DNA of 64,000 bases from an uncultured Chloroflexia bacterium (lineage in GTDB: Bacteria > Chloroflexota > Limnocylindria > Limnocylindrales > CSP1-4): contig CAVQRP010000007.1 of the NCBI GenBank assembly GCA_963715295.1, positions 37,330 to 101,329 of the forward strand. Reading direction: 5' to 3'. A program made the position numbers and the translations under genes. The notes under the pieces are model-generated. The model did no database searches and was not told the origin of the DNA. It worked only from the letters and a program-made list of their open reading frames with translations. Position 1 is the first letter of the stretch. Every line of letters starts with the position of its first letter. Shown here one piece after another: positions 42,869 through 52,698 of the stretch.

Positions 42869-43255
42869 GTGACCAGCTATTACGATCTCGCTGCCGCCAA
42901 CGGGCGGCTGGAAGACCTGCGCTCGATGCTGTCGGATCTGCGCGATGATCGCGATGCCATCGCCTCGGCCCAGCTGCGCATCGGGCAGTTGGTGGTCGAG
43001 GACGATCGCGCTGCTGTCGAACGCGAGCAGGAGCAGATGGCCCAGACCGTGCGACGGATGGAGCGGACGGTACGCCAGCTCGATGCCTGGGGCGTCGCCC
43101 TGCGGGACATCGCTACCGGCCTGGTCGACTTCCCTGCCCTCGCCTCCGGCCGGCCCATCTGGCTGTGCTGGCGACTGGGCGAGGATGACATCGCCTTCTG
43201 GCATGAGCTTGACGCCGGTATCGCCGGCCGCAAACCCCTGATCGAGTTGGAGTAG
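42869..43255 (+). CDS. DUF2203 family protein
   Basis: 128 aa, GTG start. Conserved C-terminal RPIWLCWRLGEDDIAFWHELDAGIAGRKPL. Only the 3' part of the long ORF 41696..43255 is used. Confidence 0.6.
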   Translation: MTSYYDLAAANGRLEDLRSMLSDLRDDRDAIASAQLRIGQLVVEDDRAAVEREQEQMAQTVRRMERTVRQLDAWGVALRDIATGLVDFPALASGRPIWLCWRLGEDDIAFWHELDAGIAGRKPLIELE

Positions 43256-43257
43256 CA

Positions 43258-43635
43258 ATGTCCTTCCTTCGCAGCCTGATGGGCGGCGGTGTCCCCGCCG
43301 TGACCGTGCAGCAAGCCGCCGAGATGCAAGGCACCGATGGCGTCGGCGCCCTGATCATCGACGTGCGCGAGCCCAACGAATACACGCAGATCCGCGCCAA
43401 GGGTGCCGTGCTGCTGCCGCTGGGCCGCCTCAACAGCTTCGTCAAGGAGCTGCCTCGCGACCGCGAGCTGCTGATGATGTGCCGTACCGGTGGCCGCAGC
43501 CAGAACGCGACCCAGTTCCTGCAGGCGCAGGGGTTCGAGAACGTGACCAACGTCAGCGGCGGCATCGTGGCCTGGCACGCCGCCGGCTTGCCCACCACCT
43601 CGGGCGATCCAGAGCCGGGCGAAGGCGCCTTCTAG
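43258..43635 (+). CDS. Rhodanese-like sulfurtransferase domain protein
   Basis: Active-site loop CRTGGRS. Start lies 2 nt after the DUF2203 stop. Confidence 0.85.
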   Translation: MSFLRSLMGGGVPAVTVQQAAEMQGTDGVGALIIDVREPNEYTQIRAKGAVLLPLGRLNSFVKELPRDRELLMMCRTGGRSQNATQFLQAQGFENVTNVSGGIVAWHAAGLPTTSGDPEPGEGAF

Positions 43636-43917
43636 GAGCGACCCACCGCCGTCGAGCCGGGCCGACTCCTGGAGCGGGGCGGCATCCTGCTTCGGCGTGG
43701 CCTCAGCGGGCGCGAGCCTCAGCTGCGCACGCTGATGGCCGATGACACCGCTGACCCAGCCTTCGCGATCTACCGTCGCGAACCGTAGAGGCAGCGGGAT
43801 GGTGCCACCGGCCAGCCCGTGGGCGAGGACGCAGGGGCTGTCGCCCGGCGCTGCGAAGAGGAGGAAAGGAGCCTGCAGGTCCGCTGAGCGACGGTCCGGG
43901 GCTCAGCGGGCGGATAG

Positions 43918-45411
43918 CTACGAGCGGTAGCGCTCCTCCGGTGGCATGGGCAGCCGGCCACGTGAGAGCTTCGACAGCACGCGCTTGCTCGACTCGGGCC
44001 GCGAGAGCGCGATGCCGATGATGATCAGGATGACGAAGTTGGTCATACCCACGCCCATGGCGTTGAGGTAGCCCAGCTGCTGGCCGACCTCACCCTGGAT
44101 CGCCAGTGCCGGGATGGTGGCGCCGGCGATCCCCAGCTGGAAGAAGGGCGGGCGCGGGGAGATGGCTGCGCGCAGCGACCCATCGGTGGGTCCATCGGGT
44201 GTCTCTCCGCCGAACACGAAGGCCTGTGACCCCACACCGGCGATCGGCGCGTCGGCGGTCGCGACCGGCAGGTCGGTCTGCTCGAGGCTCTGCCAGCCGT
44301 CGTAGTTGCCGGTGGTCGTGTCGGGCACGGCCCACAGGACCGACGTCTGCGGCAGACCCTCGGCATCGAAGCCACCGATGACATAGATGGCACCGTTGGC
44401 GTTGAAGACGCTAGCGTCGGTGAGCGCCTGCGGCAGAGCCTGGTCCGCGGGGGCGACGCCCCAACCGACCAGCTGCCCGGCTTCGTCGGTGGCCGGCTCG
44501 CCGTCGACCAGCTCCAGGCGGAAGACGGTGTCGGTGGCGCCATCGGGGCCCTCGCCGCCGACCACGTACATGAAGTCAGCGATGGACGAGGCCACCATGC
44601 CCGCGCGCGGCTCCGGCAGGGCCAGGCCTTCCAGCGGCGCCCATGGCTGCAGGGTGTCACCGGCTCCTTCGACCCAGGCGATGTAGGCGCCGTCGGTGGG
44701 CTCGCCGTTGACGTCCCGGCCACCCACCAGCACGAAGCCGCCGGTACCGAGGATGACCCCGGCGCCACTCAACGGCTGCGGCAAGGTCAGCTCTTCGGTG
44801 CGGTTCTCGCCGTCGGCAAGCACCCAGCCGGTGAGCACGCCTTCTTCGATGACGCCCTCGTAGACGGTGTCGGTCGGGGCACCGGCGCCATCGAGGCCGC
44901 CGATGAGGTAAGGGACGCCGGAGAACGTGGCCAGGGCGGCGTCCGTGCGCGGCGCCGGTAGTGCCGGTCCGCTGGTCCAGCCGGTCAGGTTCCCCTCCTC
45001 GGTCACATTCGTGACAAGGACTTCGTCGCTGGCGCTGCCATCCACGTCGCCGCCGATGACGTACACGGCGGTACCCGACTGGTACACCGCCGAGCCAGCG
45101 CGCGCTGAGGGCATCGCCAGCTGCGCCGGCGATGTCTGCCACGGCAGGGTGGCACCAGCAGGTGCGGGACAAGGCAGGTTTTCATTGTCGGCCGGGCACA
45201 GGTTGACGATCGAGGCGAAGTTGTAGCCCACCGAGATGGTGGTGCTGGTGGTGAAGTAGTAGGCCCAGTTGGGAACCACGCCGAGCATGAAGATGATGAT
45301 CAGGAACCAGAAGGCCGCCTTCAGCCCGGCCCAGGTCCAGCCATCGGCGTCGAACAACCCGAAGGCGGCGCGGCGGCGGGTGGCGCCCTGCGGGAGTGCT
45401 TGCTGTGCCAC
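43918..45411 (-). CDS. Kelch-repeat beta-propeller membrane protein (last gene of cytochrome bc operon)
   Basis: N-terminal TM, about 6 Kelch-like blades (YVIGG, YLIGG, FVLVGG, YVVGG, YVIGG, FVFGG) and a C-terminal TM. Confidence 0.7.
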   Translation of the reverse strand: MAQQALPQGATRRRAAFGLFDADGWTWAGLKAAFWFLIIIFMLGVVPNWAYYFTTSTTISVGYNFASIVNLCPADNENLPCPAPAGATLPWQTSPAQLAMPSARAGSAVYQSGTAVYVIGGDVDGSASDEVLVTNVTEEGNLTGWTSGPALPAPRTDAALATFSGVPYLIGGLDGAGAPTDTVYEGVIEEGVLTGWVLADGENRTEELTLPQPLSGAGVILGTGGFVLVGGRDVNGEPTDGAYIAWVEGAGDTLQPWAPLEGLALPEPRAGMVASSIADFMYVVGGEGPDGATDTVFRLELVDGEPATDEAGQLVGWGVAPADQALPQALTDASVFNANGAIYVIGGFDAEGLPQTSVLWAVPDTTTGNYDGWQSLEQTDLPVATADAPIAGVGSQAFVFGGETPDGPTDGSLRAAISPRPPFFQLGIAGATIPALAIQGEVGQQLGYLNAMGVGMTNFVILIIIGIALSRPESSKRVLSKLSRGRLPMPPEERYRS

Positions 45412-45426
45412 GTTCCTCTCCTGCCC

Positions 45427-46620
45427 CTAGCCCTGGATCACGATGTTGCCGTGCATGGTCGTGTAGTGACCCGGCACCGTGCAGGCGAACTGCAGGTTGG
45501 CGCCATCCTCCGGCACCGTCCAGGTGATGGTCTGCTCACCGCTCTGCCAGGTCGGGATGCCGTCGTCCGTCTCGGCATTGGGTGTGCTTAGTGCGTCCGC
45601 TGCTCCGATCCAGAAGTTGTGGTCGAAGCCAGCCACGTTGTCGACGACGAACTCGATGGTCTCGCCGGGCACCACGTCGATCTGTGGGACGACGGCGCCC
45701 GACTCATCGGTGAACTGCAGGTTGGACGTGGCCTGGAGGCGGATCACACGCGGCGCATCGGTGGACCCGCCATCGATGGCCACCGGCGTGGCAGCGGGGT
45801 CGACCGGTGGTGGCGTAGCGGCCGTGGCATCACCGCCGCCGCTGACACCACCGGGGTTCTTCCAGCAGTCAGGCACGGGCGTGTCCTCGGGGCCGGGCTG
45901 CCAGTTCGGATCACGCCAGCCAGCGACCTGCTCCGGCGGCGGGGCCTCTGCCGCCGCTTCGCCATGCGACGCCGGCGCGTGTTCGAAGATGATGTCGTTG
46001 CTCGCATTCAGCCAGACGATGAGCTCCTCGACCTGGCGATAGTTGAGCGGGCCGTTGGGCTGCAGCCAGGGCGCCATCAGGCTGTTGGGGTCGCCACACA
46101 CGTAGCGGCCGCCGACGGTGAGCACGTTCTCGAGGTAGCCGGGGTTGAGGTGACCCGTCCCGGAATCGCCCGCAGGCGTGAGCACGTTGTACAGCTTGGC
46201 CTGGTCGTTGAGTCGCGGGCCGATCCCACCCTGGCCTTCAGCGCCGTGGCAGGTGGCGCAGTTGGCGATGTAGAGCTCGTAGCCGCGCGCGACATCGGTG
46301 ACGTACTGGGCGTCGGCCTCCGCCGCCAGGCGGCCCTCGGTGCCGAGGGCCGGCACGCCGCTTTCGTAGAACCAGTAGACCGGGATGAAGAGCGCCACGA
46401 CCAGGATGGCCAGGAAGACCACGTTGCGAGCGTTGGCGCTTTGGCGAACGATCTGCGCGGAGCGCTCCTCGGTCAGCTCGACGCTGTGCGCGCGTGGCCC
46501 GGCGGAGAAGCGCTCGACGTCGCGGCTCTCACCCTCGACCGGGACCAGGGGCGATTCCGGCCGTCCGACCTCGTCAGACCCCCGGGGCGCGAGCTCCTTG
46601 CCGCCCTTGTCCTCGCTCAT
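45427..46620 (-). CDS. Membrane-anchored cytochrome c - cupredoxin (type-1 copper) fusion protein
   Basis: TM helix, CATCHG haem c motif, then a plastocyanin-like site HNFW ... CTVPGHYTTMHG (His, Cys, His, Met ligands). Confidence 0.8.
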   Translation of the reverse strand: MSEDKGGKELAPRGSDEVGRPESPLVPVEGESRDVERFSAGPRAHSVELTEERSAQIVRQSANARNVVFLAILVVALFIPVYWFYESGVPALGTEGRLAAEADAQYVTDVARGYELYIANCATCHGAEGQGGIGPRLNDQAKLYNVLTPAGDSGTGHLNPGYLENVLTVGGRYVCGDPNSLMAPWLQPNGPLNYRQVEELIVWLNASNDIIFEHAPASHGEAAAEAPPPEQVAGWRDPNWQPGPEDTPVPDCWKNPGGVSGGGDATAATPPPVDPAATPVAIDGGSTDAPRVIRLQATSNLQFTDESGAVVPQIDVVPGETIEFVVDNVAGFDHNFWIGAADALSTPNAETDDGIPTWQSGEQTITWTVPEDGANLQFACTVPGHYTTMHGNIVIQG

Positions 46621-47285
46621 ATGCAGCCCGTCGGCGACTTGGCCGGGATGAGACCAGGCTGGCCCAGCGCCACCGGCAGCGAGCCGAGCGAGATCGTGCT
46701 GGTATCGACGACGAGCTGACCATCCTGCACGCTATGCGGGAAGCGATCGAGACCGCGCGGCGCAGGGCCCAGCTCCTTGACCTTGGTGCCCAAGCGGTCG
46801 TAGCGCGAACCGTGGCAGGGGCATTCGAACCAGTAGTTCGACTCGCAGAAGTTGGGCTTGCAGCCCAGGTGTGGGCACTTCTGGTACATCGTCCACACGT
46901 TGGTGACGTCGCCCTTGCCGTCAGACGACTCACCGTTCAGGAAGCCCAGGTTGGGGTCCTGGAGGACGACGAAGGTGCGTGCGGCGGGGAAGTACGAGGG
47001 CGCACCGTCCTTGAGCGTGAGACCCGCGACCTCCGGGTTATCGGAGACGGTCTGGAAGTCGCCCAGGTTGATCTGGCCACCGAAGCCGCGGGCAAGGTTG
47101 GGCCAGAGGAAGCCCAGGGTGCCGGCACCGACCTCGAGCAGCCATAGCGCGACCGCCGCACCGATGGAGCGACGGATAAGCTGCCGACGCGTCAAGCCAC
47201 CGGTCCTGCCGCTGCGCATCTCACGCAGGACGGGCTCGGTCAGTGCTCCGGGCTCTTGCGAACGAGTCAGCTTCCAGTTGCCCAT
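46617..47285 (-). CDS. Rieske [2Fe-2S] subunit of cytochrome bc/b6f-type complex
   Basis: Tat motif RRQLIRRS plus CPHLGC...CPCHGS cluster boxes. Confidence 0.9.
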   Translation of the reverse strand: MGNWKLTRSQEPGALTEPVLREMRSGRTGGLTRRQLIRRSIGAAVALWLLEVGAGTLGFLWPNLARGFGGQINLGDFQTVSDNPEVAGLTLKDGAPSYFPAARTFVVLQDPNLGFLNGESSDGKGDVTNVWTMYQKCPHLGCKPNFCESNYWFECPCHGSRYDRLGTKVKELGPAPRGLDRFPHSVQDGQLVVDTSTISLGSLPVALGQPGLIPAKSPTGCI

Positions 47286-47292
47286 CGTGCCC

Positions 47293-47934
47293 CTACAGTG
47301 CGAAGAAGAAGCCCTCCCACGGCATCGTCCAGGCGTAGCCCGGGCCGCGGAAGAAGGCGCCCAAGAAGGTGATGGTCAGGCCAGCACCCATGATGATGGT
47401 GAAGAGCATCACGCTGGTCTTGCGGTCGGACGGACGAGGCGAGCCGCCGTCGCCCCGGGGGCCGCGATCGATGAACGGGATCAGTGCCGCACCCACGAGG
47501 ATGACCGTCGGGGCCAGTACGCCGGCGACGGTGGGGTGGAAGTAGGCCAGCAGCTCCTGCAGGCCCACGAAGTACCAGGGTGCCTTGGCCACGGCGGGAG
47601 TGACGTTGCCGTTGGCCAGCTCCTCCAGCGGCGCGTTGATGAAGATGCCCATGAGGATCAGGAAGATGCTCATCATGGCCGCGGCGAAGAACTCGATCGA
47701 GAGCAGGTGCGGCCACGTCATGACCGTATCGTCCGGTTCCTTCTGGACGCGGACGACGGCGTCCTGTTTGACCAGGGCCAGCAGCCGGTAGGGCTTGGCG
47801 GCCATGGGCACGCGCTGCTTGTCGATCTCCGTCGTGCGCCGCTCCGGCGGCGACGCAGGCAGCGTGCTCCGTCGCTCCGGCGTTGACGTCGGGGCTGAGG
47901 CGGGGACCTGGGGGTGCTTGGTCTCTTCGCTCAT
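47293..47934 (-). CDS. Cytochrome b C-terminal-domain subunit (subunit IV / PetD-like)
   Basis: Three TM helices and a PEWY-like region (APWYFVGLQELL). Confidence 0.8.
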   Translation of the reverse strand: MSEETKHPQVPASAPTSTPERRSTLPASPPERRTTEIDKQRVPMAAKPYRLLALVKQDAVVRVQKEPDDTVMTWPHLLSIEFFAAAMMSIFLILMGIFINAPLEELANGNVTPAVAKAPWYFVGLQELLAYFHPTVAGVLAPTVILVGAALIPFIDRGPRGDGGSPRPSDRKTSVMLFTIIMGAGLTITFLGAFFRGPGYAWTMPWEGFFFAL

Positions 47935-47949
47935 GGGTGCTCGTTCGGT

Positions 47950-48678
47950 CTACAGCGGACCGCTGATACCTCCGTCCTTGCGAATGCGCCAGAAGTGCAC
48001 GGCCAGGAACAGGGCCGCCACCAGCGGCATGAGGATCACGTGCAGGACGTAGAAGCGTAGGAGGGTGTTCTGACCCACCTCGATGCCACCCAGCAGCAGC
48101 AGCTGGCTGGGCGTGTTGAACAGCGGCGCGAAGGTGGCCATGTTGGTGCCGATGGTGATGGCCCAGAAGGCGATCTGGTCCCACGGCAGCAGGTAGCCGG
48201 TGAAGGAGAGGAAGACGGTCAGCAACAGCAGCACCACGCCGACCACCCAGTTGAACTCACGCGGTGGCTTGTAGGCGCCGTGGTAGAAGACACGCATCAT
48301 GTGCAGGAAGACGAAGAACACCATCAGGTGGGCGGCCCATCGGTGGATGTTGCGAGCCAGCAACCCGAAGGGAACCTCTGCCTGGATGCGCAGGATGTCC
48401 GAGTAGGCCTGGGTGGCCGAGGGCACATAGAAGAACATCAGGTAGACGCCCGTCACGGTCAGCACCAGGAAGAAGAAGAAGGAGAGCCCGCCCAGGCAGA
48501 AGGTATAGGCGAACTTGACCGCGTGCTGCCGCACTCGCACCGGGTGCAGGTGCAGGAACACGTTGTTCATCACGGCCATGGCGCGCGATCGCTCGTCGTT
48601 GGGGTAGGGCTGTCGGAAGATCGACCGGAACGCCGCGCTACGGCGGATCGACTGATCGACGCGCTCGAGGAAGCTCAA
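47950..48678 (-). CDS. Cytochrome b6-like subunit (N-terminal four-helix haem b domain, PetB/QcrB-like)
   Basis: Haem-ligand His pairs in helices B and D (HLHP...H and [16 protein letters not shown]). TTG start overlaps the upstream stop. Confidence 0.9.
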
Positions 48679-50546
48679 CGCCGTGTCACCGTCATCGAGG
48701 AATGACCCCCTGCCTCTGCCTGGTTACCGACACCAGCCAAGCCCAGCTGGGTGTCCCGGTACGACTCCTTGTAGAGCCTACCGTCCTCACTGATCTCCTG
48801 CATCTCGAAGCGTTCCATGGTGATGGCATCGTAGGGGCAACGCTTCACGCAAAGCGCACAGCGGATGCAACGTTCCTCGTCGAGGACCATGGCCGCGCCC
48901 TGGGTCCAGCCGTAGCCGTCGACCAGCTCGGGCAGCGCTCCCTCGGATCTCATCTGGTTCACGTCGATCATGTGGATGACGCCTTCGGGGCACACGTCCG
49001 CACAGGCGCCGCAAAGCACGCAGCGGAAACCATCGAACCAGATGTTGTAGTTGCACATCAGGCAGCGCGTGGACTCGGTGACGGCCTGGTCGGTGGTGTA
49101 GCCCAGCTCGGAGATGGTGCTGAAGTTCACCTTGGGGTCAGCCGAAGGCAGGCGCGCGTCCACTGGCAGGACGGGGATGTGCTGACGCGGCAGGACGTCA
49201 TACAGCTCGGGCATGTCGTGGCGCCAGGAGCTGACGATGCGCACGTTGGCGTCCACCGCCACCGTCGAGCGACCCGACAGGTAGCGGTCGATGGCATAGG
49301 CGCACTTCTTGCCGTGGCCGGCCGATTCGATGAGCGTCGTGGGGCCGGTCACGAAGTCGCCGCAGGCGAAGACGCCGCGCACGTTGGTGGCGTAGGTGCC
49401 GGGATCGACACGCATGCGGCCACGATTGATCTGGAAGCTGGCATCGACGGGCAGGAACGTGTTGTCGGCGGCCTGGCTGACCGCGGGGATGACGGTCTGC
49501 GCCGGCACCACGTACTCGGAACCCTCGATGGGCACCGGGCGGCGGCGACCGCTGGCGTCAGGCTCGCCCAGCTTGTTGCGCACGAACCGGACGCCGCTGA
49601 TGTTGCCGTTCTCATCCCCGATGATCTCCACCGGACTGACGAGGAACTCCATGCTCACACCTTCGCGCTCGGTCTCGCCCAGCTCCTCCTCGTCCACGAC
49701 CAGCTCGGAGCGCGTGCGGCGGTAGGCGATGGTGACGTTCCTGGCGCCGTGCCGCAGGCTCGTACGCGAGCAGTCCATGGCCGTGTAGCCGCCGCCGATG
49801 ATGACGACGTCGGTGCCGACCGCGACCTCCTCACCGAGGTTGGCGCGCTTCATGAAGTCGACGCCGTACTGGATGCCGTTGAGATCGTTGCCGGGGACGT
49901 CGAGTGGCACCGCGTTCATGGCGCCGGCGCAGATGGCCACCGCGTCGTACTGCGCCTGCAGCTCCTCGAAGGTGATGTCGCGTCCCACGCGGACGTTGAA
50001 GCGGAACTCCACCCCCAGGCGCTCGACGAGCCGGAAGTCCATCTCGATGGCTTCGCGCGGAAGACGGAACGCCGGCACGCCCACCAGCAGCGTGCCGCCG
50101 GCCATGGGCAGCTCGTCGAAGACGGTGACCTGGTGGCCGGCCACGGCCAGCTCGCGCGCGACCGCCAGGCCGGCGGGCCCGGCACCCACGACCGCCACGC
50201 TGGTGTCGCGGGGGGTGATGAGCGGCATCTCGTCGGGGATGCCCGACTGGGCGTGCCATTCGACGAGGAAGCGCTTCATCGCGCGGATGGCCAGGGGCCG
50301 ATCGATGTCGCCACGCCGGCAGGCGCGTTCGCACGGTGCCGAGCACACGTAGGCGCACATGGCGGCGACCGGGTTGGGTTCACGCGAGAGGATGTAGCCC
50401 TCCTCGAAGCGACCCTCCGCCGCGAGGTTCAGGTAGCCGCGACAGTTGGTGCCCACCGGACACGCTTCCTGGCACTCGATGTTGCACTGCAGCCAGGACG
50501 CGTCCACAGGCTGGACGAGGAACTCCTGGCCGGTGTCGATGACCAC
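48675..50546 (-). CDS. GltD-like NAD(P)H-dependent FeS flavoprotein with extra C-terminal 2x[4Fe-4S] ferredoxin domain
   Basis: N-terminal Cys clusters, FAD and NAD(P) Rossmann motifs ([26 protein letters not shown]), and C-terminal CLMCNYN...[12 protein letters not shown] and [12 protein letters not shown]. Confidence 0.8.
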
Positions 50547-50760
50547 GCTGGATCGAACCCCCTCACGACGGGTGTTGGGACTGACTGGTCGGCCTCATGG
50601 CCCGAGTGCGAGCGAATTTACCATCCGAGGGCCGAGCCGTGCGTGATCGATGAGCGCAGATATACGACTTTGGCCGCGGCCGTTCGCTTCCGGGCGCCGC
50701 CGCAGCCAGCGATCTCCAGCCGGGACCTTCTGCCTGTTGACCACGCCCCTGCTGCCCCGT

Positions 50761-51941
50761 ATGTTCCTGCTCATGAGCACACCTGCGGGGGTGTCCGAAG
50801 CGCATCCTGCCGACGGCTGTGCCGAGATGCGGGCCGAGGTCGGCCGGACCTGTCGCGAGGCGCACGAAGCCAGGGCCGCGCATGAGGCCGCCGCTGCCAA
50901 CACACACGAGCTGCGGCGGGAGCTCGTCGCCAGCCAGCACCGGCAAGCGGAGGCGGCTGTCGCGGCCGACCCCCAGTTCCGTAGCGCCGACAAGAAGGCC
51001 GCTCGTGACACCTACCAGCTGGCGCGATACGCGGCCCAGTCGGAAGACGAGATCCGCGAGGCCACGGCAGCCTGGGCCCAGGCCGTCGATCGCATCAACC
51101 GTGCCGGTCGACTGGCCCAGCGCGCGGCGGCGCAGGCCAAGGCTGCCGTCGCCAGCGTGGAATCATCGCTGCACGAGGCCGAGCAGGCGGAGCGAAGTGC
51201 GCGCATCACGGCCGAGCGGGCTGAAGGCGACTGCCTCGATGCTCGCGTTCGCCTGGCCGCGTGCGAGGAAGAAGCGGCCGCTCCGGCGGAGGCAGCCAGC
51301 GCGACCGTGTTCGAGCCGCACGCGGCTACCGGAGGCCACGCCATCGCCGTCAGCCCCACCGAGCGCATGTCACCCCTGGTCATCGAATTGATGGTCAGCG
51401 CCGACCGACGCGCGCTCGAGCTGGCGGCGAACGATGTCGCGGCACGCACCGGCTGCTCGCCGGCGGAGGCGCAGCTGCAGCTGCAGGAGCTGGTCGATGC
51501 CATCGTCTCGGCCGCGGCCGAGGAGGGCTTCCTCATCTTCGACAGCGACCATCGCTTCTGGGCCACGCTCACCTTCGAAGAGGCGCGCGATGTCATCGCC
51601 GCGCTGGCGCGGCTCGGCTTCAGCTTCGCCCCCAGCGAGGGCTGGTACGCGGGACGCGCGCCGGCGCCGGCGGACCTGTCGATGGCACTGGCCTACGCCG
51701 GACTGGACGCGCGCAACATGCGCGACCTGCCCGACAGCGAGGATCTGCGCCAGTTGCCCGGCTCCATCGGTGTCGATGGGCGAGCCTACCTCGCGGCCCG
51801 GGCACCATCCCTGGCCATGGACCAGCTGGTGAGCGCCCTGGGCGTCGCGCCGAGCCGCTCGAGCTGCTGTGGAACGAGTGGGGCCAGGTGCGTCCGGTGC
51901 TGTTGACCGACCGGCACGACCTCGGCAGCCTGCCCGGCTGA
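50761..51941 (+). CDS. Hypothetical Ala-rich coiled-coil protein (C-terminus probably frameshifted)
   Basis: About 390 aa with high GC3. The last ~40 aa likely continue in the frame of ORF 51261..51941. Confidence 0.45.
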
Positions 51942-51952
51942 GCTCGTCGAGA

Positions 51953-52698
51953 GGGTTCCGAGCCGCAGCTAGCGGAAGATCGACGACGGCGAAGTCTTCT
52001 CCAGCAGTGGCGCCGATGGCTGCGCCCGAGATGCGGGCGCGTTCACGCACCTCATCGGCCATGCGCTCGGGCTCGACCAGCTGGCTGGCATGGGCGGACA
52101 GTGCGCGCAGCTTGGCCGGCAGCGTCTCGCTGATGTCGACGACGACGTTGGGTTGGTCGCTCCAGAAGAGATACAAGCGGCCGACCCGGTGTGGCTGGAG
52201 CCCCTCCGCTATGACCAGGTGCGGAAAGGCCATGGGGTTGCGCGCGGCCGGGTAGACCGCGTCGATAGCGGCTGCACCGGCCGCACGATGGTCGACGTGG
52301 TTCACGCTGCCGTCCGGGTGGATCAGCACCCGCGGGTCAAGGGTGACGACGGCATCGGGAGCGAAGGTACGGATGATGCGCACGAGCTGCTCACGCAACG
52401 CCAGGTCGTTGGCGAGGGCACCATCGGGGCGATGCAAGAACGTCACCGCCTCGTAGCCGACGATGCCGGCAGCGGCACGCTGCTCTGCTTCGCGCATGGC
52501 GGCGACGGCCAGCGGGTCGGCTGACGCATCGTCGGCGCCGGCATCGCCGCTGGTACAACACACCAGCTGGGCCACACTACCCTCAGCGACCCAACGGGCC
52601 ACGCTGCCGGCGGCCGCGAAGTCAGCATCGTCAGGGTGCGCCACGATGACCAGCGGTCGCCGGGGCCGCTCGACATGGGCGCGAAGGTCGGCCGTCAT
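51953..52698 (-). CDS. PIG-L/LmbE family N-acetylglucosaminyl deacetylase
   Basis: PLVIVAHPDDADF and HVDHRAAG motifs. Start MTADLRAH. The 3' boundary is uncertain because the ORF runs on as antisense of the convergent gene. Confidence 0.65.

Follow-up and report, generated by a model that had tools for sequence, protein, structure and literature searches.

The locus analysed here raises the question of why the gene for a NAD(P)(H)-binding iron–sulfur (FeS) flavoprotein lies directly in front of, and overlaps, the cytochrome b6 gene of a quinol:cytochrome c oxidoreductase (complex III). The window, i.e. the whole stretch of 64,000 nucleotides (nt) that was analysed, comes from an uncultured soil-dwelling Chloroflexia bacterium of the class Limnocylindria (the name used by our sources); its G+C content is ~69%, and its own assembly (G000) comprises 3.0 Mb and is 66.5% complete. 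A first-pass annotation made from the sequence alone had described the gene as a GltD/NfnB/SudA-type flavoprotein with an additional ferredoxin domain and had regarded it as an unexpected partner for complex III. Our analyses demonstrate that the linkage between the flavoprotein and complex III is real and conserved, and they favor a model in which the flavoprotein is likely a bound subunit that exchanges electrons with the b-haem chain. The full reading, in which binding and electron exchange are combined with net reduction of NADP+, is more tentative, and we assign it a probability of roughly 0.4.

The flavoprotein gene is the first of a six-gene operon (flavoprotein, cytochrome b6, subunit IV, Rieske protein, cytochrome c-cupredoxin, and Kelch protein), in which the genes are tightly spaced on the minus strand (Table 1). 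The first two genes stay together throughout the class, in which we distinguish the families f1–f5 and the genera g6 and g7. Cytochrome b6 directly follows the flavoprotein in all 12 loci from the same genus, the window's included, in all 29 additional ones from f1 and f2, and in all 20 that were fetched from f3, f4 and f5. A species-representative scan, seeded from a 7-sequence alignment and taking one genome per species, yielded 80 loci; in 67 of these, the flavoprotein is at least 75% identical to ours, and 64 of these same-type loci have cytochrome b6 in the next position, the misses being two loci at contig edges (L117 and L135) and L139. In total, cytochrome b6 follows the flavoprotein ortholog in 125 of the 128 fetched loci, a linkage that exceeds chance. 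Conservation of the gene upstream of petB in relatives, which the first-pass annotation had named as a point to check, is thus borne out, and its converse, a flavoprotein gene unlinked to bc genes in all related genomes, is not what the class presents. L139:1159-4893 (record title Candidatus Limnocylindrales) has a complex-I-type paralog copy instead of cytochrome b6 after its flavoprotein ortholog (77% identity), an arrangement that may represent a rearrangement or an assembly join. Two loci in records with other titles, L070 (Candidatus Dormiibacterota; flavoprotein 85% and cytochrome b6 89% identical to the window's) and L075 (Candidatus Sulfotelmatobacter; 84% and 83%, respectively), seem more likely to be mis-binned contigs than cases of transfer.

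The two genes are also absent together. At E ≤ 1e-120, 130 of the 151 genomes of the class have a flavoprotein ortholog, a tally that includes five genomes flagged as unpublished (G103, G123, G132, G147 and G158), each with a match and each used for this tally alone. It is absent from the genera g6 (0/9 genomes) and g7 (0/2), the genomes of which are 91–95% complete. In the five g6/g7 genomes that were searched for it, the cytochrome b6 ortholog was not found, the best matches being 27–35% identical; COX1 is also missing in four of these five, and the fifth has a different cytochrome b adjoining its oxidase. This joint absence suggests that the flavoprotein, cytochrome b6 and the oxidase-linked chain come and go together. 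Where present, the flavoprotein is 78–79% identical between families, where the Rieske protein is only ~50% identical, and streamlined genomes of 1.0–1.4 Mb retain it at the same 78–79% identity. Class-wide linkage, overlap and co-loss hence uphold the functional tie to bc-type genes that had been suggested from this locus.

At the junction of the two genes, the TGA of the flavoprotein (48677-48675) and the TTG of cytochrome b6 (48678-48676) overlap by 4 nt on the minus strand (...CGTTGAGC...), an overlap that the first-pass annotation had also noted. The long, TTG-started form of cytochrome b6 is supported because conservation among relatives extends over its first 35 residues, with R22, Y25 and P26 invariant in 17 sequences, and because relatives have ATG or GTG where the window has TTG. 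With start codons picked nearest the expected position, stop and start overlap by 4 nt in seven of eight f1/f2 loci, the eighth having abutting genes, and in all 11 f4 loci; in seven f3/f5 loci, the genes lie anywhere between 1 nt of overlap and 21 nt apart. Since the aligned blocks are 68 and 158 nt apart in two of the 12 same-genus loci, the overlap is common and not universal.

The flavoprotein itself has three groups of Pfam domains, all above cut-offs: Fer4_20 (residues 19–102), Pyr_redox_2 (116–409) and the 4Fe-4S dicluster domain Fer4/Fer4_7 (508–584). Together they describe an N-terminal FeS domain, FAD and NAD(P) Rossmann domains, a conserved linker (430–490), a 2x[4Fe-4S] ferredoxin domain and a tail. 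C25, C29, C64, C68, C72 and C76 of the N-terminal domain are invariant in the alignment, the ferredoxin domain contains C509/512/515/519 and C560/563/566/570, and two additional invariant cysteines, C495 and C498, form an RCxxC pair at 494–498. The cysteines kept in 46 homologs would fit two N-terminal clusters and two C-terminal CxxCxxCxxxCP motifs. An AlphaFold2 model computed from the same number of sequences has a predicted local distance difference test score (pLDDT) of 88.6 and a predicted template modelling score (pTM) of 0.88, with residues 599–623 disordered.

By sequence, the best matches in the PDB are the NADP(H) subunits of NfnABC/StnABC complexes (9n5u_A, 1e-110; 9bov_A, which has the same sequence as 9bp5, 4.5e-106; 8oh5_C, 8e-91), followed by NfnB (4ylf_B, 1e-89; 5jca_L, 3e-85) and then by GltD (7e-65) and dihydropyrimidine dehydrogenase (DPD; 4e-26); FwdF (5t5i_F) matches at E 3.5e-12. 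Foldseek searches with the model returned the same order of relatives, with 9bov_A at rank 1, 8oh5_C and 9n5u_A also among the top matches, and E-values from 3e-52 to 4e-42 over the NfnABC/StnABC and NfnB entries. The protein falls short of the cut-off in every NCBIfam model: the top-scoring one, NF009410 (PRK12771), gives 428.3 bits against a cut-off of 516 and spans residues 22–578, corresponding to model positions 47–563 of 566, while TIGR01316 (gltA), TIGR01317 and TIGR01318 (gltD_gamma_fam) score 346.2, 229.5 and 283.2 bits where 471.75, 447.7 and 482.95, respectively, would be needed. The domain architecture proposed in the first-pass annotation therefore stands, and the kinship is to be redrawn, as the protein is nearer to the NfnABC/StnABC NADP(H) subunit and to NfnB than to GltD, SudA or DPD. 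A YRRTR stretch after the second Rossmann strand may signal a preference for NADPH. Names assigned automatically to the flavoprotein and cytochrome b6 genes, for example "glutamate synthase beta subunit-like", "formate dehydrogenase beta subunit" and "ExtP", call for caution. The genome encodes other GltD/NfnB-like paralogs, e.g. G000:C13:6121-7374, which is 40% identical to the flavoprotein.

The downstream genes encode a complex III with a distinct set of signatures. Cytochrome b6 has the haem-b ligands H112, H126, H213 and H228, and C61 of its CLGG motif aligns opposite Cys35 of chloroplast b6, with C61, G63 and G64 invariant in 17 sequences; on this alignment it would be of the haem-cn type, its CLGG cysteine corresponding to the haem-cn ligand of the b6f complex. 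In the cytoplasmic N-terminal extension, R22, Y25, P26, H43 and H52 are invariant in the same alignment and H45 is nearly so. Subunit IV has the Qo motif APWY in place of PEWY (A118, P119, W120 and Y121 invariant), and the Rieske protein has CPHLGC as box I and CPCHGSRY, of the S-Y type, as box II. Across 132 loci, a pattern scan found APWY in 115 and box II in 75, of which 72 are S-Y and three S-F. The best PDB matches of the Rieske protein are 9rk3_A (1.3e-14) and 9rk4_A (5.9e-12), the best b6f Rieske protein matching at 3.6e-8, and by its motifs the protein is predicted to be of the high-potential type. The cytochrome c gene start overlaps the Rieske stop by 4 nt. Its product has a single CxxCH motif and, near residue 380, a blue-copper-like C..H....M pattern, with an NCBIfam CopI match at 364–395 and a weak auracyanin A match at 342–395 (E 0.0044). 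In most loci of the same bacterial order that extend far enough, the Kelch gene follows the cytochrome c gene and ends the operon; no Kelch gene was detected in the 20 f3, f4 and f5 loci. We also considered whether cytochrome b6 and subunit IV could be ExtP and ExtQ of the selenite/tellurite reduction operon (NF040969/NF040970), and rejected this identity since cytochrome b6 is barely over the cut-off (292.8 vs. 290 bits) and subunit IV is far under it (47.3 vs. 150), so that the name "ExtP" over-annotates.

In the host, this complex appears to be the only one of its kind. The cytochrome b6 is the only Cytochrome_B match in G000 and in the relatives G007 (95% complete) and G025 (93% complete), and NrfD, the marker of alternative complex III, was found in 0 of five genomes, making the flavoprotein-linked complex the only recognisable complex III in near-complete relatives. 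COX1, NuoD, NuoF and the transhydrogenase subunit PntB are each present in five of five genomes. With a sole Cytochrome_B, no NrfD, and COX1, NuoD and NuoF present, the complex must carry quinol-to-cytochrome c respiration. MenB is over its cut-off in two same-genus genomes, G001 and G007, and only in those, which points to menaquinone as the probable quinone; the futalosine pathway marker PF02621 was found in none of five genomes. The COX1 match of the window's own genome, at G000:C7:18788-20116, ~17 kb before the window start, is broken into four pieces in different frames, possibly by frameshifts or assembly errors, the frame being single and intact in relatives. Another observation, made outside the window, concerns complex I: in the operon at G000:C1:478500-490500 (L159; NuoD, NuoH, NuoE-like, NuoF, NuoJ and NuoL), the NuoG position is taken by an 876-residue protein with an N-terminal 2Fe-2S domain, a GltD/NfnB-like FAD/NAD(P) module and 2x[4Fe-4S], which resembles the NfnABC large subunit. 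Frames of 673–986 residues that are 36–39% identical to the window's flavoprotein occur in most of 41 genomes compared.

As for transcription, the flavoprotein gene would be the first of the operon because 50547–50760 is intergenic and the neighbouring gene, from 50761, runs the opposite way; a Shine-Dalgarno-like GAGGGGG run lies ~11 nt upstream of the flavoprotein's GTG. The first-pass annotation had suggested looking for a shared promoter in this region, and a scan found no minus-strand sigma-70-like site there, the consensus being one that may not fit this phylum. The same scan, with the same proviso, found no promoter-like or terminator-like site at 48675–48700, where such a site, together with a lack of linkage in relatives, would have refuted the first-pass annotation. 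Over 43000–52000, it gave one promoter-like site (plus strand, 50737–50765) and two terminator-like sites, compared with 0.5 and 2.6 in shuffled sequences, i.e. nothing above chance. Four sediment RNA-library runs contain just 5–8% of sampled words, and most of their contigs are 85–95% alike to the window and therefore from relatives. One contig of 163 nt crosses the stop/start junction (48615–48777) and another of 191 nt covers the start of the flavoprotein gene (50368–50558), both with 0 differences. As contigs cannot prove a single transcript and DNA may be present in the libraries, they are at most a weak hint of expression. Of the 80 species-scan loci, 49 have a counterpart of the divergent gene upstream, placed alike and likewise on the opposite strand. 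Most relatives of the PIG-L frame align over residues 17–250 only and the remainder overlaps the plus-strand gene, suggesting that the real PIG-L gene is probably shorter than this frame.

Table 1 Features of the flavoprotein–complex III locus in the window
Feature	Coordinates	Strand	Basis
NAD(P)(H)-binding FeS flavoprotein, 623 aa, GTG start	48675..50546	minus	Open reading frame, Pfam, NCBIfam, PDB search, AlphaFold2, Foldseek
Cytochrome b6, 242 aa, TTG start	47950..48678	minus	Pfam PF00033 (158 bits), alignment
Subunit IV-like protein, 213 aa	47293..47934	minus	Pfam Cytochrom_B_C, alignment
Rieske [2Fe-2S] protein, 222 aa	46617..47285	minus	Pfam
Membrane-anchored mono-haem cytochrome c (CATCH) with C-terminal cupredoxin-like domain	45427..46620	minus	Pfam Cytochrom_C/Cytochrome_CBB3 at 109–144
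Kelch-repeat beta-propeller protein, 497 aa	43918..45411	minus	Pfam Kelch families
Divergent intergenic region, 214 bp, presumed operon promoter	50547..50760		Sequence reading
Divergent 381-aa protein, no Pfam match	50761-51906	plus	Pfam, relatives' loci
PIG-L-domain frame, 451 codons	51370-52725	minus	Pfam PIG-L at residues 25–156

Homologs from outside the class place the module in a wider setting. In a 50%-identity representative library, flavoprotein identity falls steeply, from 83% to 48% and below. Thirteen of the 80 species-scan loci contain homologs of the same architecture at 35–44% identity; Pfam analysis of 11 of these loci identified neighbours that include complex I genes, sulfite reductase, 3'-phosphoadenosine 5'-phosphosulfate (PAPS) reductase and ATP sulfurylase, and 2-oxoacid:ferredoxin oxidoreductase, and that otherwise are seemingly unrelated. 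Longer homologs are fused to old yellow enzyme (OYE), dihydroorotate dehydrogenase (DHODH), thiamine pyrophosphate (TPP)-enzyme or molybdopterin modules; 0 of 15 longer homologs scanned have a cytochrome b domain, no dedicated search for fused forms having been made. Because of these varied neighbourhoods and fusions, the module is best described as a general NAD(P)(H)-to-FeS adaptor. Two Nitrospinota genomes and one Nitrospirae genome have it in a bc context, in the order Rieske protein, b6, subunit IV, multihaem cytochrome c, flavoprotein. The b6 of these clusters shares the N-terminal extension, aligning from residue 3 to 17, unlike the other cytochrome b copies in the same three genomes, which align only from residue 48–61 on. 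We count these clusters among the evidence that the window's complex and the anammox complexes are of one kind.

We suggest the following model. The flavoprotein would be a peripheral subunit on the cytoplasmic (n) side of an APWY-type Rieske/cytochrome b6 complex, in which four FeS clusters, two N-terminal and two C-terminal, would link FAD and NAD(P)(H) to the low-potential haems bL, bH and cn. Upon oxidation of menaquinol at the Qo site, one electron would pass to the high-potential Rieske protein and on via cytochrome c-cupredoxin to the haem-copper oxidase. The second electron would enter the b haems and either reduce quinone on the n side, as in an ordinary Q cycle, or pass through the FeS wire to FAD and reduce NADP+, such that part of the surplus driving force is stored as NADPH. 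Because the complex is the only complex III, the Q cycle must persist, and the invariant haem-cn cysteine is consistent with its retention. The NADP(H) branch would be a reversible one that works close to equilibrium, with its net direction depending on how reduced the pools are. From the potentials quoted in the text of Hauser et al. 2025 (PMC12954380), i.e. menaquinone −70 mV, NAD(P) −320 mV and Rieske ~+300 mV, we estimate that about 370 mV per quinol is released on the high-potential branch and that the low-potential branch requires about 250 mV, to which the electrical work of bringing an electron to the n side is added. If all low-potential electrons went to NAD(P)H and then through complex I, we estimate that ~six charges would be moved per two electrons to cytochrome c, exceeding the available energy, and we therefore favor a side branch over full routing through NAD(P)H.

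Several points weigh against this model. From the architecture, the linkage, the overlap, the co-loss and the motif signatures, we infer physical binding, electron transfer and its direction; docking of the flavoprotein on b6 is thus predicted from genes and sequence. Homologs of the same architecture lie mostly in non-bc contexts, with cytochrome b nearby in only one of the 13 loci and none in the flanks examined of the other 12, and some of their contexts would suggest a role in NADPH input. Characterised GltD, NfnB and DPD modules mostly accept electrons from NADPH, and with PntB in five of five genomes, NADPH is obtainable otherwise. On the energetic balance given above, NADP+ reduction would be marginal at normal membrane potential and feasible near equilibrium. 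A 68-row tree splits the bc-linked flavoproteins into two clades at a branch whose approximate likelihood ratio support (SH-aLRT) is 96; a tree constrained to a single clade is 15.2 log-likelihood units worse and is not rejected in an approximately unbiased (AU) test (p 0.213; reduced 35-row set, LG+G4), so that a single recruitment is neither shown nor excluded.

The strongest alternative retains the bound subunit and reverses the flow: electrons would pass from NAD(P)H via FAD, the FeS wire and haem cn/bH to menaquinone at the n-side site, making the complex a built-in NADPH:menaquinone reductase and, by analogy, a hard-wired counterpart of the ferredoxin:NADP+ reductase (FNR) on the chloroplast b6f complex in cyclic flow. 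Such a route would be ~250 mV downhill with no charge crossing (an estimate from the potentials in the text of PMC12954380), the invariant haem-cn cysteine of the CLGG motif makes it plausible that the n-side quinone site is retained, and an association of FNR with b6f is cited in the text of Dibrova et al. (PMC5600118). Same-architecture homologs adjoin NADPH-consuming partners, e.g. sulfite reductase, and the OYE, DHODH, TPP-enzyme and molybdopterin fusions fit a general NAD(P)H input module. Nevertheless, we regard this direction as somewhat unlikely: it would waste ~250 mV in cells that have complex I with NuoF as well as PntB, it has no need for a high-potential S-Y Rieske protein or for APWY, it sits poorly with retention of the flavoprotein at 78–79% identity even in streamlined genomes, and Hauser et al. 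(PMC12954380) state in their text that they judged it unlikely for Kuenenia on the same energetic ground. A high-potential Rieske protein combined with menaquinone, APWY, conservation in the 1.0–1.4-Mb genomes, and the availability of complex I and PntB for the reverse task make us lean slightly toward net NADP+ reduction.

Alternatively, the flavoprotein could be a soluble NAD(P)H:ferredoxin-type oxidoreductase that is merely co-transcribed with the complex, for redox maintenance, cofactor assembly or regulation, and is not docked on b6. The family is promiscuous in its genomic context, L139 is a same-type locus with a paralog and not cytochrome b6 next to it, and a cytochrome b domain is missing from all 15 longer homologs scanned. 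This option is improbable given linkage across five families that is kept in other phyla despite a different gene order, the conserved start/stop overlap, loss of the flavoprotein together with cytochrome b6, the b6 N-terminal extension in every flavoprotein-linked copy, and a flavoprotein better conserved between families (78–79%) than the Rieske protein (~50%). That an ordinary GltD, NfnB or SudA adjoins bc genes by chance is far less probable still. The Pfam domains are common to all of them and the gltA and gltD_gamma_fam models score 346 and 283 bits; these scores are, however, under the curated cut-offs (471.75 and 482.95), the operon has no GltB-, NfnA- or SudB-type partner, the genome has separate GltD/NfnB-like paralogs, and GltD, NfnB and SudA are ~460–490 residues long by PDB chain lengths and lack the extra C-terminal ferredoxin domain. 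We therefore rejected GltD or NfnB proper on the cut-offs and the missing partner gene.

Reduction of NAD(P)+ by Qo-site bifurcation in a Rieske/cytochrome b complex has been an open proposal since 2013, and the idea has so far been examined only in slow-growing anammox bacteria, which carry two other complexes too. In the present lineage, a widespread one of soil and freshwater aerobes, the sole complex III is of the same kind, and its simpler high-potential side, with a single haem c and a copper domain, offers a cleaner system for testing the idea, with the genera that have neither the flavoprotein nor cytochrome b6 as a natural comparison set. It is tempting to go further and speculate, unlikely as we consider it, that the sole complex III throughout the class is a quinol:cytochrome c/NADP+ bifurcating machine, turning the surplus drive of menaquinol oxidation by a high-potential Rieske protein into NADPH, and that an NfnABC-like module replaces NuoG in the complex I operon, giving the chain two NADP(H) wiring points. 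If this were true, the anammox hypothesis would describe a widespread respiratory design and not an anammox peculiarity.

How does this complex relate to known systems? In the closest case, the text of Hauser et al. 2025 (PMC12954380) describes the Rieske/cytochrome b complexes of Kuenenia and relays the proposal of Kartal et al. 2013 that, in Qo-site bifurcation, one electron travels up to NAD(P)+ via b haems and four FeS clusters, including an extra haem b proposed to be held by His43 of the b6 subunit Kuste4571; it further argues that a high-potential Rieske protein working with menaquinone implies b haems low enough for NAD(P)+ reduction, and the work it cites reported co-migration of the Kuenenia flavoprotein. 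Both systems have a split b6 and subunit IV, a haem-cn cysteine (CxGG), and a flavoprotein in the same operon, and our matches to NfnABC (9bov/9bp5) and FwdF (5t5i) are the structural relatives that this text gives for the flavoprotein Kuste4570. Both have a Rieske protein of high-potential type, and the closest solved relatives of ours, 9rk3 and 9rk4, are the two Kuenenia proteins Kustd1480 and Kuste4569, which belong to the two anammox complexes with a flavoprotein of this sort and for which the text gives measured potentials of +335 and +303 mV. Residue 43 in our b6 alignment is an invariant His, a possible counterpart, by its number, of His43 in Kuste4571. Unlike the anammox complexes, ours belongs to an aerobic member of the Chloroflexota and is the only complex III, whereas Kuenenia has three; the flavoprotein gene comes first; and a mono-haem cytochrome c-cupredoxin and a Kelch protein take the place of a hexa- or octahaem cytochrome or a protein like hydroxylamine oxidoreductase (HAO), so that the multihaem mark of the anammox complexes is absent.

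The wider families are also in print, and the partnership that the first-pass annotation had called unexpected is less so, having been described for anammox planctomycetes and, more loosely, for the subfamily-G cytochromes b. Its further suggestion of NAD(P)H-linked reverse electron flow or a confurcating arrangement stays a hypothesis, a sensible one that published work had anticipated. According to the text of Kao & Hunte 2014 (PMC4122944), an APWY clade includes Chloroflexi, Planctomycetes, Nitrospirales and delta-proteobacteria, none of them characterised, and S-Y and APWY-coupled Rieske proteins are classed as mid-plus to high potential; with APWY and an S-Y Rieske protein, the window's complex would be a member of this clade by its motifs. 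The text of Dibrova et al. 2017 (PMC5600118) reports that short cytochromes b of subfamily G, to which ours would belong by motifs only, co-occur with large NAD(P)-binding FeS proteins, sharing operons with them in some planctomycetes and lying near them "in many other cases". Class, class-wide conservation and sole-complex status go unnamed in the text of these two papers, the supplements of which may list relatives; with the same proviso, a full-text literature search returned nothing describing the arrangement in this class. With the Bfu-type NfnABC/StnABC NADP(H) subunits and with NfnB, the flavoprotein shares the FeS, FAD and NAD(P) domains and, in the Bfu subunits, also a ferredoxin-like region; in contrast to these 950–1180-residue chains with additional domains, it has 623 residues, and in place of a HydB/NuoF-like or NfnA-like operon partner it has a membrane cytochrome. 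The FNR bound to chloroplast and cyanobacterial b6f (Zhang et al. 2001, as cited in the text of PMC5600118) likewise is an NADP(H) flavoenzyme on the n side of a haem-cn b6 complex, the side predicted here, and differs in its unrelated fold, in having no FeS wire, in not being encoded in the operon, and in working through soluble ferredoxin. The window's complex is thus a further member of a published, biochemically uncharacterised kind (Kartal 2013, Dibrova 2017, Hauser 2025), and what sets it apart is that its host is aerobic, that it serves as the sole complex III, that the flavoprotein gene opens the operon and overlaps the next gene, and that its partners are a cytochrome c-cupredoxin and a Kelch protein.

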